A DNA stretch of 64,000 bases from Octopus vulgaris (lineage: Eukaryota). The position numbers and the translations under genes were made by a program. Position 1 is the stretch's first letter, and each line of letters begins with the position of its first letter. Below the pieces are notes generated by a model. That model was not told the origin of the DNA. It saw only the letters and a list, made by a program, of their open reading frames with translations, and ran no database searches. This document shows positions 3,943 to 42,400 of the stretch, in pieces. The stretch lies in contig OX597820.1 in NCBI GenBank assembly GCA_951406725.2, positions 40,424,001 through 40,488,000 on the forward strand, written 5' to 3'.

Positions 3943-4525
3943 GATCACTAGAAATAAAGTCTGGTCATAGAGTGACCAATGGCTTCGCATAAACGAAAGC
4001 TGCAAACTTGGACAGCACATCATACTCTATACGAAGACAAATTCAACTCTGCACCTCACAGAGGAGGAGAAACGCTGTGGTCAACTGGTCAAACGTCTAT
4101 CAGAGAAAAAAGCCATTAGTGAGTTCGGATTATTTCCCCTGCATTATCAATTAATTGGAAATGGAGTTCAATTTCGTAAGGTCCCTTAGGAGCCTCATCA
4201 GCGAACGGAGAATCTCAATTTTGCAGGCGATAGCACTTGAAATGAACACATTTTGTACCTATTTCTTTACGAGTGTTCAGTGAGGCAGGCCTAGCATAGT
4301 TTTTAAGAATTTTGGCTCGATCAGCAATGCTGATATTGTAGTGGTTGCTCCCATTAGTATAGGCGCCTTGTTGTTTCTAAGATCTTCCAGCTAATATTAT
4401 ATGGGTGTCCCTTGATATTGAATGGGGCTACACATGGCTGGCCATTGGTCACTCTATGGCCAGACTTTAACTTTTGTGATTTAATATTTTACTGCTCTAT
4501 TCTTTACAGAGTGCTTCTTATTTAG
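3943..4525 (-). mobile_element. 5'-truncated Penelope-like element with inverted terminal piece
   Basis: Minus strand ~4430-4217 reads (with a frameshift) YNISWKILET..AYTNGSNHYNISI..SLNTRKEIGTKCVH, a PLE GIY-YIG C-terminus. 3943-3982 and 4441-4480 are inverted repeats. (TA)n flanks. Confidence 0.75.
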
Positions 4526-7731: not shown

Positions 7732-8152
7732 CTGTGTGTGTGTGTGTATGTGTGCATACAACCTTCAACAGAGTAACAGTCATGAACAGGCACATATCAG
7801 TACATAAACATACGTTCACATGTACTCTTGTACACACACACAGACACGTCTACACACTTATTTAAAAACTTACGTACATACATATAGGCATGTACACATG
7901 CATACACATGTACACATACTCATACGCACATACATGTACACACATACATACACACATACACACATACATACGTACATATATATAATGAACTAACTGTTAC
8001 TTTCTCAGATGCAGCACGGATTTTTGTCAGTGGTCTCAAAGCGACGGAAATATTTTGGCAAATTAAATTAAAATTTTGAAGTGAATCTAATGGTTTTCGT
8101 CTGTTTTAAATGGCTTATAAACACCTTCCACGCTGCAATTGTTATATATATA

Positions 8153-8219
8153 TATAATTAATTAATAAGGGTGAGAGAATTAGATACTAATTTAATAGTA
8201 TATTTATTCCACACCAAGT
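8153..8219 (-). repeat. 67-bp inverted partial copy of the array unit at the array 5' end
   Basis: Exact reverse complement of 8573-8639; shares GT (8218-8219) with the array start. Confidence 0.93.
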
Positions 8220-8266
8220 ATTTATCGTTATGGTAAAATCTGGCGTGTGATTGAGTGGATTTCATC

Positions 8267-8360
8267 CAGATAGTCTTGGCTGAAGAGCTACAAATGGATT
8301 ACTGTAAGTAATATTACATTTAATTCATTAATAGCGAAACAATTGTCCCAAAATAATCTG
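8267..8360 (+). ncRNA. Type I hammerhead ribozyme, first of 13 copies (core starts at 8280+534k, last at 14688)
   Basis: TTGG-CTGAAGA-GCTA..(41 nt)..TAGC-GAAA-CAATTG-TC^-CCAA. CUGANGA and GAAA cores are intact. Stem II GCTA/TAGC; palindromic stem III ACAATTGT; GUC site with cleavage after 8347; stem I TTGG/CCAA extended by CAGAT/ATCTG. Confidence 0.9.
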
Positions 8361-11300
8361 TATTTTTGTTATTTTTTATTTGCCCTGTCCGTGTGAGCTA
8401 ACAGTCGTACCGGCTTTCATGGGAAACATGTATTTTTCGTGGTTGAAACCTCTTGGATTAACTGGTGCTAGAGTGATCAATATAGTGAACACTCTCTTAT
8501 ATTTATTTTGTGAAAATATTATAATATGTTATAAAATATTATAATAATCCAGGTTTCTCGTAGCACTAGGCCACTTGGTGTGGAATAAATATACTATTAA
8601 ATTAGTATCTAATTCTCTCACCCTTATTAATTAATTATAATTATGCTGCATTTATTTCTAAATGCTGTATTTGTTTTCCGTGAGAGTTTGGCGCGCTGTT
8701 GGTTGGGGCATTTGAATTATAACGTCCGATGTAATCAATTGAACCGCACGCGTATTTATCGTTATGGTAAAATCTGGCGTGTGATTGAGTGGATTTCATC
8801 CAGATAGTCTTGGCTGAAGAGCTACAAATGGATTACTGTAAGTAATATTACATTTAATTCATTAATAGCGAAACAATTGTCCCAAAATAATCTGTATTTT
8901 TGTTATTTTTTATTTGCCCTGTCCGTGTGAGCTAACAGTCGTACCGGCTTTCATGGGAAACATGTATTTTTCGTGGTTGAAACCTCTTGGATTAACTGGT
9001 GCTAGAGTGATCAATATAGTGAACACTCTCTTATATTTATTTTGTGAAAATATTATAATATGTTATAAAATATTATAATAATCCAGGTTTCTCGTAGCAC
9101 TAGGCCACTTGGTGTGGAATAAATATACTATTAAATTGGTATCTAATTCTCTCACCCTTATTAATTAATTATAATTATGCTGCATTTATTTCTAAATGCT
9201 GTATTTGTTTTCCGTGAGAGTTTGGCGCGCTGTTGGTTGGGGCATTTGAATTATAACGTCCGATGTAATCAATTGAACCGCACGCGTATTTATCGTTATG
9301 GTAAAATCTGGCGTGTGATTGAGTGGATTTCATCCAGATAGTCTTGGCTGAAGAGCTACAAATGGATTACTGTAAGTAATATTACATTTAATTCATTAAT
9401 AGCGAAACAATTGTCCCAAAATAATCTGTATTTTTGTTATTTTTTATTTGCCCTGTCCGTGTGAGCTAACAGTCGTACCGGCTTTCATGGGAAACATGTA
9501 TTTTTCGTGGTTGAAACCTCTTGGATTAACTGGTGCTAGAGTGATCAATATAGTGAACACTCTCTTATATTTATTTTGTGAAAATATTATAATATGTTAT
9601 AAAATATTATAATAATCCAGGTTTCTCGTAGCACTAGGCCACTTGGTGTGGAATAAATATACTATTAAATTAGTATCTAATTCTCTCACCCTTATTAATT
9701 AATTATAATTATGCTGCATTTATTTCTAAATGCTGTATTTGTTTTCCGTGAGAGTTTGGCGCGCTGTTGGTTGGGGCATTTGAATTATAACGTCCGATGT
9801 AATCAATTGAACCGCACGCGTATTTATCGTTATGGTAAAATCTGGCGTGTGATTGAGTGGATTTCATCCAGATAGTCTTGGCTGAAGAGCTACAAATGGA
9901 TTACTGTAAGTAATATTACATTTAATTCATTAATAGCGAAACAATTGTCCCAAAATAATCTGTATTTTTGTTATTTTTTATTTGCCCTGTCCGTGTGAGC
10001 TAACAGTCGTACCGGCTTTCATGGGAAACATGTATTTTTCGTGGTTGAAACCTCTTGGATTAACTGGTGCTAGAGTGATCAATATAGTGAACACTCTCTT
10101 ATATTTATTTTGTGAAAATATTATAATATGTTATAAAATATTATAATAATCCAGGTTTCTCGTAGCACTAGGCCACTTGGTGTGGAATAAATATACTATT
10201 AAATTAGTATCTAATTCTCTCACCCTTATTAATTAATTATAATTATGCTGCATTTATTTCTAAATGCTGTATTTGTTTTCCGTGAGAGTTTGGCGCGCTG
10301 TTGGTTGGGGCATTTGAATTATAACGTCCGATGTAATCAATTGAACCGCACGCGTATTTATCGTTATGGTAAAATCTGGCGTGTGATTGAGTGGATTTCA
10401 TCCAGATAGTCTTGGCTGAAGAGCTACAAATGGATTACTGTAAGTAATATTACATTTAATTCATTAATAGCGAAACAATTGTCCCAAAATAATCTGTATT
10501 TTTGTTATTTTTTATTTGCCCTGTCCGTGTGAGCTAACAGTCGTACCGGCTTTCATGGGAAACATGTATTTTTCGTGGTTGAAACCTCTTGGATTAACTG
10601 GTGCTAGAGTGATCAATATAGTGAACACTCTCTTATATTTATTTTGTGAAAATATTATAATATGTTATAAAATATTATAATAATCCAGGTTTCTCGTAGC
10701 ACTAGGCCACTTGGTGTGGAATAAATATACTATTAAATTAGTATCTAATTCTCTCACCCTTATTAATTAATTATAATTATGCTGCATTTATTTCTAAATG
10801 CTGTATTTGTTTTCCGTGAGAGTTTGGCGCGCTGTTGGTTGGGGCATTTGAATTATAACGTCCGATGTAATCAATTGAACCGCACGCGTATTTATCGTTA
10901 TGGTAAAATCTGGCGTGTGATTGAGTGGATTTCATCCAGATAGTCTTGGCTGAAGAGCTACAAATGGATTACTGTAAGTAATATTACATTTAATTCATTA
11001 ATAGCGAAACAATTGTCCCAAAATAATCTGTATTTTTGTTATTTTTTATTTGCCCTGTCCGTGTGAGCTAACAGTCGTACCGGCTTTCATGGGAAACATG
11101 TATTTTTCGTGGTTGAAACCTCTTGGATTAACTGGTGCTAGAGTGATCAATATAGTGAACACTCTCTTATATTTATTTTGTGAAAATATTATAATATGTT
11201 ATAAAATATTATAATAATCCAGGTTTCTCGTAGCACTAGGCCACTTGGTGTGGAATAAATATACTATTAAATTAGTATCTAATTCTCTCACCCTTATTAA

Positions 11301-14300
11301 TTAATTATAATTATGCTGCATTTATTTCTAAATGCTGTATTTGTTTTCCGTGAGAGTTTGGCGCGCTGTTGGTTGGGGCATTTGAATTATAACGTCCGAT
11401 GTAATCAATTGAACCGCACGCGTATTTATCGTTATGGTAAAATCTGGCGTGTGATTGAGTGGATTTCATCCAGATAGTCTTGGCTGAAGAGCTACAAATG
11501 GATTACTGTAAGTAATATTACATTTAATTCATTAATAGCGAAACAATTGTCCCAAAATAATCTGTATTTTTGTTATTTTTTATTTGCCCTGTCCGTGTGA
11601 GCTAACAGTCGTACCGGCTTTCATGGGAAACATGTATTTTTCGTGGTTGAAACCTCTTGGATTAACTGGTGCTAGAGTGATCAATATAGTGAACACTCTC
11701 TTATATTTATTTTGTGAAAATATTATAATATGTTATAAAATATTATAATAATCCAGGTTTCTCGTAGCACTAGGCCACTTGGTGTGGAATAAATATACTA
11801 TTAAATTAGTATCTAATTCTCTCACCCTTATTAATTAATTATAATTATGCTGCATTTATTTCTAAATGCTGTATTTGTTTTCCGTGAGAGTTTGGCGCGC
11901 TGTTGGTTGGGGCATTTGAATTATAACGTCCGATGTAATCAATTGAACCGCACGCGTATTTATCGTTATGGTAAAATCTGGCGTGTGATTGAGTGGATTT
12001 CATCCAGATAGTCTTGGCTGAAGAGCTACAAATGGATTACTGTAAGTAATATTACATTTAATTCATTAATAGCGAAACAATTGTCCCTAAATAATCTGTA
12101 TTTTTGTTATTTTTTATTTGCCCTGTCCGTGTGAGCTAACAGTCGTACCGGCTTTCATGGGAAACATGTATTTTTCGTGGTTGAAACCTCTTGGATTAAC
12201 TGGTGCTAGAGTGATCAATATAGTGAACACTCTCTTATATTTATTTTGTGAAAATATTATAATATGTTATAAAATATTATAATAATCCAGGTTTCTCGTA
12301 GCACTAGGCCACTTGGTGTGGAATAAATATACTATTAAATTAGTATCTAATTCTCTCACCCTTATTAATTAATTATAATTATGCTGCATTTATTTCTAAA
12401 TGCTGTATTTGTTTTCCGTGAGAGTTTGGCGCGCTGTTGGTTGGGGCATTTGAATTATAACGTCCGATGTAATCAATTGAACCGCACGCGTATTTATCGT
12501 TATGGTAAAATCTGGCGTGTGATTGAGTGGATTTCATCCAGATAGTCTTGGCTGAAGAGCTACAAATGGATTACTGTAAGTAATATTACATTTAATTCAT
12601 TAATAGCGAAACAATTGTCCCAAAATAATCTGTATTTTTGTTATTTTTTATTTGCCCTGTCCGTGTGAGCTAACAGTCGTACCGGCTTTCATGGGAAACA
12701 TGTATTTTTCGTGGTTGAAACCTCTTGGATTAACTGGTGCTAGAGTGATCAATATAGTGAACACTCTCTTATATTTATTTTGTGAAAATATTATAATATG
12801 TTATAAAATATTATAATAATCCAGGTTTCTCGTAGCACTAGGCCACTTGGTGTGGAATAAATATACTATTAAATTAGTATCTAATTCTCTCACCCTTATT
12901 AATTAATTATAATTATGCTGCATTTATTTCTAAATGCTGTATTTGTTTTCCGTGAGAGTTTGGCGCGCTGTTGGTTGGGGCATTTGAATTATAACGTCCG
13001 ATGTAATCAATTGAACCGCACGCGTATTTATCGTTATGGTAAAATCTGGCGTGTGATTGAGTGGATTTCATCCAGATAGTCTTGGCTGAAGAGCTACAAA
13101 TGGATTACTGTAAGTAATATTACATTTAATTCATTAATAGCGAAACAATTGTCCCAAAATAATCTGTATTTTTGTTATTTTTTATTTGCCCTGTCCGTGT
13201 GAGCTAACAGTCGTACCGGCTTTCATGGGAAACATGTATTTTTCGTGGTTGAAACCTCTTGGATTAACTGGTGCTAGAGTGATCAATATAGTGAACACTC
13301 TCTTATATTTATTTTGTGAAAATATTATAATATGTTATAAAATATTATAATAATCCAGGTTTCTCGTAGCACTAGGCCACTTGGTGTGGAATAAATATAC
13401 TATTAAATTAGTATCTAATTCTCTCACCCTTATTAATTAATTATAATTATGCTGCATTTATTTCTAAATGCTGTATTTGTTTTCCGTGAGAGTTTGGCGC
13501 GCTGTTGGTTGGGGCATTTGAATTATAACGTCCGATGTAATCAATTGAACCGCACGCGTATTTATCGTTATGGTAAAATCTGGCGTGTGATTGAGTGGAT
13601 TTCATCCAGATAGTCTTGGCTGAAGAGCTACAAATGGATTACTGTAAGTAATATTACATTTAATTCATTAATAGCGAAACAATTGTCCCAAAATAATCTG
13701 TATTTTTGTTATTTTTTATTTGCCCTGTCCGTGTGAGCTAACAGTCGTACCGGCTTTCATGGGAAACATGTATTTTTCGTGGTTGAAACCTCTTGGATTA
13801 ACTGGTGCTAGAGTGATCAATATAGTGAACACTCTCTTATATTTATTTTGTGAAAATATTATAATATGTTATAAAATATTATAATAATCCAGGTTTCTCG
13901 TAGCACTAGGCCACTTGGTGTGGAATAAATATACTATTAAATTAGTATCTAATTCTCTCACCCTTATTAATTAATTATAATTATGCTGCATTTATTTCTA
14001 AATGCTGTATTTGTTTTCCGTGAGAGTTTGGCGCGCTGTTGGTTGGGGCATTTGAATTATAACGTCCGATGTAATCAATTGAACCGCACGCGTATTTATC
14101 GTTATGGTAAAATCTGGCGTGTGATTGAGTGGATTTCATCCAGATAGTCTTGGCTGAAGAGCTACAAATGGATTACTGTAAGTAATATTACATTTAATTC
14201 ATTAATAGCGAAACAATTGTCCCAAAATAATCTGTATTTTTGTTATTTTTTATTTGCCCTGTCCGTGTGAGCTAACAGTCGTACCGGCTTTCATGGGAAA

Positions 14301-14674
14301 CATGTATTTTTCGTGGTTGAAACCTCTTGGATTAACTGGTGCTAGAGTGATCAATATAGTGAACACTCTCTTATATTTATTTTGTGAAAATATTATAATA
14401 TGTTATAAAATATTATAATAATCCAGGTTTCTCGTAGCACTAGGCCACTTGGTGTGGAATAAATATACTATTAAATTAGTATCTAATTCTCTCACCCTTA
14501 TTAATTAATTATAATTATGCTGCATTTATTTCTAAATGCTGTATTTGTTTTCCGTGAGAGTTTGGCGCGCTGTTGGTTGGGGCATTTGAATTATAACGTC
14601 CGATGTAATCAATTGAACCGCACGCGTATTTATCGTTATGGTAAAATCTGGCGTGTGATTGAGTGGATTTCATC

Positions 14675-14768
14675 CAGATAGTCTTGGCTGAAGAGCTACA
14701 AATGGATTACTGTAAGTAATATTACATTTAATTCATTAATAGCGAAACAATTGTCCCAAAATAATCTG
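14675..14768 (+). ncRNA. Type I hammerhead ribozyme, last (13th) copy of the array
   Basis: Identical to 8267-8360, offset 12 x 534. Confidence 0.88.
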
Positions 14769-14915
14769 TATTTTTGTTATTTTTTATTTGCCCTGTCCGT
14801 GTGAGCTAACAGTCGTACCGGCTTTCATGGGAAACATGTATTTTTCGTGGTTGAAACCTCTTGGATTAACTGGTGCTAGAGTGATCAATATAGTGAACAC
14901 TCTCTTATATTTATT

Positions 14916-14947
<32 letters not shown>

Positions 14948-15985
14948 CCACCCGTAATGAGGACAATAACCCTTTGTTTCGCTTTAATATATACTATCAG
15001 ATGATAATTTAATTCGATTATACATTCATTGTAGAATGGTTTTATCATAACCACCTTAACATTATGCTTAGGAAAGGCCTTATGAGCATTCTCTTACAGA
15101 GTAAAGTATCCTATTATTAGATTTTAAGTTTAATTTCTATCCTTATCCTATATATTGATTCAATTTTTTTTTCTAAGTTTAATATAATGAAATTGCTAAG
15201 TTATGAATTACTACATCCCATATCCCTCAATTCTAATTCCCTCCCTTAGTGCCTATATTACTGATCTCTTTTGTTTTTTCATTTTATTCCCCCTTTATTT
15301 GATAATCTAAATAAGTATTGGTCACTCCAATCCTTCCTTCTAGTTATCACCTCTTCCCCATCAATCATTCTCTTACTAGCAGCTCTGAGACATATAATTT
15401 TATGTAGATAAAGCTGGAGATAGGGTTCCAGTAAAATAAGGGACTGGGAGACAGTCTTTTATTAATTGATTTATCACCATCAGCTAGAGCACTGTTGACA
15501 AATCCCAATTGATTTAATTCTAAATGGTTGTCGAGCACATATCCTGTATAAAATCTTCTAAATTATAAATAACTATCTTACAACTCCTATAACTTGCCCC
15601 CCCCCCCCCCAGATGTACGAGTGGTAATTATCGTAGGCGTATTAAGATATGCATTCTTTTCTAAACTCATTCTGCCAGAAATATAACATAACGAGACAAT
15701 GCAATTATTTTGGTTTCTAATATTGATATAAATTTGTTAAAAAGGTTTACACTTTACGTTGGAAATCTGCATGATCATCTACGTCTGAGCAGTTTCTTTC
15801 AAATTGATGTAATGTTTTCATTGATCGATTAAATGGAGCCGCTCGAAACGGCCGTAATGTATTGATACCTGGACATCCTTGTTACTTGTTTACATTCTGT
15901 GCACCTAACTTGCAGATACGCAGACTACACCGAACTGGCTTAGTGCCTCAATTAAAGTACCTAATTCAACTGTATCTTAATTATA
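14948..15985 (+). mobile_element. Old PLE-like 3' fragment ending in a degenerate hammerhead
   Basis: Hammerhead relic at 15780-15861; weak GIY-YIG-like remnant near 15520-15600. Boundaries are approximate. Confidence 0.4.
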
Positions 15986-41561: not shown

Positions 41562-42400
41562 TGAGTAATGTTTCTATAGTGTGATAGGCAAGATTTCAGT
41601 ATTTGAGTAATACAAAAACGGATGGAAAATGACATACCTTTTCTACACTTTTAGCATTTATCGTCTACACGAAATAATATTACGGTATGTTCAATGCAAT
41701 CTTCGTTATTATAAATAATCAATTCAGGTTACATCAGGGGTGCAAGTTAATATTCGCCACAAATGTTACTTCTGTTGCTAATAACTAATTTATAGACAGC
41801 CAGCCAGCTTTTTGAGACATCACTGGCTGTTTGGCAAGTATTAATCTATATTGGTTAGGCTTGACTTTCAGTTTAACATTCCGTGCATTCCTTCTTAGGG
41901 ATGAGTCTTCACAGTTGCAATTGGGAATGAACCCTTGACGTGACTTACGAGTGATGATGTCCTTAATTTTGGCGCCGCAACTGTATATAATTTGTTACCG
42001 AGTGCCTATTAAAAATCGTCGTCAGTTTGTGGCTTACTGGGAAATATTTATTTAATAACGCCAGGAATTCCTTGCCTAAGTTAGTTTTTGTTTCTAGTGA
42101 GAAAGGGAATGTGGGCCATATTTTCCTAAGTCTAGTTGCATTTTTAACTGAAGTGTTATATGGTATCTTATATTTAAAGTTGCTGTTGGCTAGAGTATTG
42201 TTATAGTAGAGGCTCCTTCATCAAACATTTCGTTTGAAGAGGACAGGTTAGATATCCTAATACTGATGCTAGGTAGTAGGTTTTTAGATGCTACAAGGGG
42301 GATGATATGACTGTATATGTATATATGTGTGATTTTCATTCAGTTTCTAAGAGAGTTTGTATCGATTTCTATTTTTTCATGCCGCAGTTGGATATTAATG
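41562..42400 (-). mobile_element. Penelope-like element fragment (RT thumb, linker, start of GIY-YIG)
   Basis: YIHIQSYHP..KNLLPSISIRISNLSSS..YYNNTL; SLETKTNLGKEFLALLNKYFPVSHKLTTIFNRHSV; LKSCLSHY. Confidence 0.8.

Follow-up and report, generated by a model that had tools for sequence, protein, structure and literature searches.

The stretch of Octopus vulgaris DNA analysed here (64,000 nt in all, referred to as the window) carries an array of head-to-tail units with a short inverted arm at its left end, and a separate old fragment of a Penelope-like element (PLE). The features are the following:

3943–4444, minus strand: separate old PLE 3′ fragment with a Hydra-like endonuclease C-terminus and a decayed hammerhead, not homologous to the unit of the array
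4441–4525, plus strand: inverted arm of the old PLE with its tail of ~40–50 nt
8143–8152: left (TA)n target, the next TATA (8153–8156) being common to the element
8153–8219, minus strand: short inverted arm, phases 422 to 356, bounded on the outside by site B, where the 131-nt tail ends
8218–8219: GT microhomology between the arms
8218–14916, plus strand: long arm, 12.54 head-to-tail non-coding units of 534 nt, whose outer end is site A (phase 291)
8267–8360, plus strand: type I hammerhead motif of unit 1, recurring every 534 nt (motif scan and fold)
8509–8639, plus strand: 131-nt "tail" from site A (8508) to site B (8639), drawn in unit 1
12088, plus strand: private A>T of unit 8, in hammerhead stem I
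14917–14920, plus strand: ATTT, in which the final 4 nt ahead of the target are copied again; similar short extras occur at other A ends
14921–14947: right (TA)n target

The 534-nt period spans 8218–14916 and stops at the phase of 8508, and the units differ at two positions only, 9138 (A>G) and 12088 (A>T). The initial annotation had described 8153–8219 as an exact reverse complement of 8573–8639, joined through GT; this holds for 67/67 nt, the match being not extendable on either side, and the GT at 8218–8219 fits both arms. The (TA)n bounds that it gave were recovered, at 8143–8156 on the left and 14921–14947 on the right, and the region past the array-end phase (8508) in which it placed the inverted segment corresponds to the 131-nt stretch between sites A and B. 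Diverged older units around the locus, which it had named as evidence against a single insertion, were not found in the window. The target duplication of the array is unreadable inside (TA)n. Each flank (7990–8143 and 14949–15250) belongs to a dispersed repeat family of its own, and copies of the left-hand family usually run into other sequence past 8143; because both flanks are repeats, DNA contigs at the left junction are uninformative on the empty site.

The PLE at 3943–4525 has the similar geometry that had been ascribed to it (minus-strand main arm, 85-nt inverted arm, TA runs), but the part taken for a GIY-YIG remnant is the endonuclease C-terminal part and not the GIY-YIG motif. Pfam gave nothing relevant in this protein remnant, which matches residues 645–709 of an intact 717-aa PLE of the same genome (tblastn E 4e-5), and the element is related to the 717-aa family, in decayed form and identically laid out. 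Homology of the array unit to the family of the 3943–4525 element was considered and rejected: a pairwise comparison reached z 3.6 among 16 tests, but the profile of that family scores the unit like shuffles. A further PLE remnant of the window, at 41996–42373, matches residues 408–539 of a 781-aa PLE protein at 34%.

A predicted hammerhead in a non-coding unit

A type I hammerhead motif, overlooked in the initial annotation, was found by motif scan in every unit (13 copies at 534-nt spacing); 12/13 pass the strict scan, and the thirteenth has the 12088 change in stem I. In unit 1 the core consists of CUGAAGA (8280–8286), an extended stem II and GAAA (8336–8339); stem III has 2 bp with an AAUU loop, the predicted cut falls after the GUC at 8347, and stem I (8267–8279/8348–8360) closes across the cut site. 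Stem II is long, with 49 nt separating the core halves, and this is probably why Rfam gave no hammerhead match (gathering threshold over the whole window; E ≤ 10 over 8100–9300). Stems I and II are reproduced by folding (z -2.9) and stay formed in the fold of the predicted monomer, which is far more stable than those of 100 shuffles (z -7.8). The predicted cut region is intact in 206/210 hammerhead motifs of the other loci of the family.

The unit has a GC content of 33% and a longest stop-free frame of 69 codons; no ORF lies in it or is joined to it, and no flanking LTR or ORF is present at any of the 49 loci examined below. On these sequence features the unit appears to be a non-coding non-LTR retrozyme with a predicted hammerhead, belonging to a young dispersed family. 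The earlier reading of a PLE-type insertion is kept, but because of the hammerhead motif "stand-alone retrozyme" is a better name for the unit than "pseudo-LTR". It resembles the metazoan non-LTR retrozymes (PMC7229834; 10.64898/2026.07.22.740005) in its non-coding tandem units with a type I hammerhead each and GC below 50%, in its dispersed copies with target duplications of more than 4 bp (13–16 nt here) and, as in invertebrate retrozymes, in a helix III of two pairs plus a tetraloop. The 534-nt unit, unlike those of PMC7229834 (170–400 nt), exceeds that range, its stem II being long (49 nt), and falls within the 51–972 bp given in the preprint (10.64898/2026.07.22.740005). Of nine predicted Xenopus retrozymes in the same preprint, eight showed no cleavage in vitro.

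The unit is present in contigs of three runs guessed to be RNA, one of them with high contig depth and few haplotypes, a comparison that comes without a silent control and in which contigs cannot show ends or circles; none of the listed sources containing the unit is recorded as RNA, and a raw RNA run from another organism gave no matches. Other families of hammerheads with a long stem II were met by chance in retrieved loci (L082, L098, L102, L116, L151, L172, L333 and L346), so that this form is common in the genome.

Outer ends at two fixed phases

A genome search with the unit returned 822 candidate places, of which 40 were scored, and a search with a 109-nt part of the unit returned 1020 candidates and 9 further loci, so that the family size is about 800–1000 candidate places genome-wide. 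The resulting end table comprises 49 loci on many contigs, including the window array, examined with their flanks; these are the best-scoring young copies among the 822–1020 candidates and not a random sample.

Each insertion consists of one arm, or of two arms with their 3′ ends (in the hammerhead sense) facing outward. For the outer ends there are two fixed positions within the unit, phase ~291 (A) and phase ~422 (B), separated by 131 nt. The B bin (397–424) also covers the ends of L039 and L059, with small deletions, the variant end of L046 and the clipped one of L064. Among the 35 two-armed loci, 33 are clear A+B pairs, one is a probable pair (L064, whose outer end at phase 403 is clipped and without TA) and one is an exception (L036, with a B end plus an end at phase 45); pairs of A+A or B+B ends were seen in 0/35. 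By batch, the first 29 two-armed loci comprised 28 binned as A+B and L036, and the later ones were A+B in 6/6. The chance of independent priming giving the first 28 A+B loci is, in the best case, 4e-9. Single-arm insertions (n = 14) end at A in seven cases and at B in seven. Either arm may be the longer one (A in 16/28 A+B loci), and both arms exceed one unit in 14/29 inversions.

The tabulation of other copies' junctions that the initial annotation had proposed shows that inverted ends and TA flanks recur at other loci. A (TA)n run of at least 10 nt lies within 25 nt of 72/84 outer ends, compared with 3% of random window positions, and target duplications of 13–16 nt were found at the four readable sites (L038, L040, L060 and L279). 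Because the same two end phases recur elsewhere and (TA)n is enriched at the outer ends, the inverted piece of the window is not a chance arrangement; it is the short B partner of a long A arm. At about one-third of the A ends, by a count made by eye, ATT, ATTT or ATTATT is re-copied between site A and the TA run, resembling RT-initiation slippage.

The inner ends are uniform across the unit (69 ends, KS p = 0.29), with 2 seen at the hammerhead site against 1.9 expected; the absence of enrichment there shows read-through of the template across the cut site. Where two arms join, they overlap by up to 6 nt or leave a gap of up to 9 nt; overlaps of 1–6 nt are present at 16/29 junctions. One locus (L282:3210-3367) has ~150 nt of (TA)n between the inner arm ends, both of which lie at phase 136.

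Twin priming by LINEs yields 5′ inversions and duplications of the 13–16-nt order, with a second arm that starts at variable internal sites. LINE-type RT fragments are common in the flanks, and we weighed a LINE (e.g., of RTE or CR1 type) with ordinary twin priming as the mobilising element; here, however, the arm start is fixed at A or B, either of which may stand alone, and no poly(A) or repeat tail is present. The related possibility of fold-back self-priming, as for rotifer PLEs (PMC3846280), is opposed by the inner junctions, which join unequal phases with 0–6-nt overlaps and are not palindromes. We regard an origin by either of these two routes as highly improbable.

A second reading takes the units as stacked pseudo-LTR stumps of an undiscovered autonomous PLE. 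Stacked ends are known for PLEs, and a Hydra-like lineage of this genome has similar long-stem-II hammerheads in its pLTRs; against this, arms longer than one unit always enter the next unit and never an ORF at the 49 loci, inner ends are random and the unit sequence is absent from all PLEs sampled, which makes such an origin very unlikely.

The fixed ends, the one tail per inversion, the TA targets, the target duplications and the haplotype shared by the arms support the earlier proposal of a single PLE-type insertion event. We consider it likely that the array is a retrozyme copy inserted in one event by a borrowed PLE RT-endonuclease, probably copying a circular one-unit RNA. Under this model, transcripts would be cut at each hammerhead and ligated into 534-nt circles; the enzyme would nick both (TA)n strands ~14 nt apart, and one nick would prime reverse transcription at site A and the other at site B of the same RNA. 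Each cDNA would then round the template for a random length, in the window 6.7 kb for the A-primed and 67 nt for the B-primed one, and the two cDNA ends would be joined via a few matching bases. With two primed arms, the "inverted 5′ piece" of the initial annotation would therefore be the second-primed arm and not a separate structure. What is of interest here is this mechanistic evidence more than the inverted piece.

Template of the arms

Variants were counted in 47/49 loci; L045 and L049 (an N run and a degraded stretch) were left out here, yet kept in the end table. Substitutions confined to a single unit number 37 in 117 kb, corresponding to 0.32 singletons per kb within loci, with no excess at the predicted ligation site. 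Another 32 variants are fixed, each in every unit of its locus that covers the site, and 23 of these are private to one locus (17 of them in at least three units); the 47 loci represent 28 haplotypes, and the two arms agree at 72/74 shared variant sites. New variants are thus fixed over the whole insertion, in both arms, which points to a one-unit stage in its origin. The lengths of the 84 arms (mean 1473 nt) are compatible with an exponential distribution (KS p = 0.08), and the two 6.7 kb arms are roughly as expected from its tail, 2 arms of at least 6699 nt being seen and 0.9 expected.

As a third alternative, a short PLE-inserted seed could have grown in place by unequal crossover or slippage, local amplification being a scenario discussed in the preprint (10.64898/2026.07.22.740005). 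Some local duplication or conversion is shown by L061, L066 and L069, where a variant is confined to two adjacent units, and the two private substitutions of the window cannot date growth, so that for the window array alone some growth after insertion may have occurred. As a general explanation, growth in place would need to be rapid and independent at nearly all young loci and in both arms; the multimeric arms on both sides in nearly half of the inversions, the continuous, near-exponential lengths and the singleton rate also speak against it, and we hold it to be improbable.

At one locus, L047 (G000:C9:100990500-100998000), the predicted cleavage triplet is replaced in the second-last unit of both arms, in register, the only case of a variant common in register to one unit per arm. 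From this single case it follows that the two arms were copied in register from one template, which was possibly a dimer circle whose inner ribozyme site was dead, or a linear multimer; a ligation scar is another possible source of the change. Because of L047 and of the variants of L061, L066 and L069, a perfect monomer is not the origin of every array.

Repeated read-through of the hammerhead site without a pile-up of inner ends requires either a circle or an uncut multimer. The latter corresponds to a fourth alternative, with an insertion of PLE type that was copied from a long linear RNA, transcribed by read-through from a parent array. It would explain the same cleavage-site change in both arms of L047, a locus equally compatible with the dimer circle just described, and PLE transcripts are described as multi-copy, with unprocessed RNA as the main in vitro substrate (PMC11167929). 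A linear template, on the other hand, requires a still longer parent for each haplotype, with arrays shortening every generation; the 12.5-unit arms of the window and L034 cannot be mutual parents, since a single unit has to contain both A and B; and the locus-private all-unit variants and the number of haplotypes are not readily given. We judge this alternative unlikely, and for the preferred one-unit template we infer that a monomer circle was copied by rolling-circle synthesis, although an enzyme jumping repeatedly onto one monomer would leave the same picture. Opinion is evenly balanced on the fuller model of twin-primed rolling-circle reverse transcription, in which one dimeric PLE-type enzyme, with both target strands as primers, would start at two fixed sites on a single hammerhead-made RNA circle, each subunit going up to 12 rounds, with no sequence common to the circle and the enzyme's own element, and in which L047 would be a dimer-circle trace from one dead ribozyme.

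Penelope-like elements and published systems

Earlier publications already describe retrozymes and PLE tails, and propose that retrozymes are moved by PLEs via circles. For non-LTR retrozymes, PLEs as partner and tandem cDNA from a circle have been proposed (PMC7229834; 10.64898/2026.07.22.740005), and in these sources both the enzyme that moves animal retrozymes and the choice between arrival as a multimer and growth in place have the status of proposals. The preprint argues, in its available text, from co-occurrence and pLTR similarity without a junction table, and the word "inverted" is absent from the main text of PMC7229834. In the full-text literature searched, subscription papers and supplements aside, we found no junction tables for retrozymes and no two-site rule for them. 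The present family gives junction-level evidence on both points, in the form of the PLE two-site signature and the one-unit bottleneck, and its junctions support a mechanism proposed earlier but without a published test in the literature searched.

PLE insertions are known to carry an extension of 30–40 nt at one end only (PMC8557442; PMC3846280). In vitro, the PLE tail equals the distance between two RT start sites, both target strands are cut and extended, a dimer is predicted and hammerhead mutants did not block insertion (PMC11167929). The octopus family resembles EN+ PLEs (PMC8557442; PMC3846280; PMC11167929) in its head-to-head arms, one-end tail, (TA)n targets, tandem copies and two RT starts, and differs from them in that it is without an ORF and both of its arms can be many units long. 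Its tail of 131 nt is longer than the published one of 30–40 nt, although tails of 67, 93 and 120 nt, besides one of 35 nt, are present in PLE families of this genome. With non-autonomous Chlamys-type PLEs such as MRC1 (PMC8557442) it shares the non-autonomous state and multicopy head-to-tail insertions; Chlamys-type PLEs, by contrast, generally match an autonomous family at the 3′ end and form a clade without canonical hammerheads, according to the same source.

The same pairing of ends was observed in autonomous PLEs of the octopus genome. The 717-aa family has A+B in 10/11 resolved inversions and a 67-nt tail; the family with 781-aa RT plus GIY-YIG has A+B in 2/2 and a 35-nt tail; and a third, Hydra-like lineage has A+B in 5/5 and a 93-nt tail, a 980-aa relative of it having a tail of 120 nt. 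The one-tail rule is common to the retrozyme family and these three autonomous PLE families, and one A and one B end in all four sharpens the view of PLE integration as two primings, one per strand. The 717-aa protein has no Pfam match; it carries the Hydra-clade motifs RWK, DKT, CxCX5C, CxxC and CxH.

Among the ~8 families sampled by BLAST and alignment (loci L070-L224, L255-L274 and L298-L367), no autonomous PLE shares the DNA of the unit, only short AT-rich or hammerhead-core matches being obtained in this non-exhaustive sample, purpose-built queries for the Naiad and Penelope/Poseidon clades aside. In this the family differs from those retrozymes of the preprint that have pLTR similarity (10.64898/2026.07.22.740005), no pLTR homologue of the unit having been found among the sampled PLEs. 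The hammerhead closest to that of the unit, and the tail nearest to it in length, belong to the Hydra-like 980-aa lineage, but the score with its profile is borderline (3/300 core-preserving shuffles score as high). From the retrozyme family comes an RNA whose two start sites are defined, and the genome encodes several intact candidate enzymes.

Some features of these PLEs were noted in passing. The young, intact Hydra-type PLE of 717 aa (L175-L194, e.g., L188:1929-6964) has a tandem period of 2590 nt and a variant hammerhead core, and the 781-aa family (L125-L144) has an overlapping 479-aa frame ahead of its ORF. In one Hydra-like family (L348-L355) the open frame of ~980–1090 aa contains an Asn-rich insert, and the 120-nt tail stops where the frame starts; another Hydra-like family (L356-L366) has an open frame of ~842 aa.
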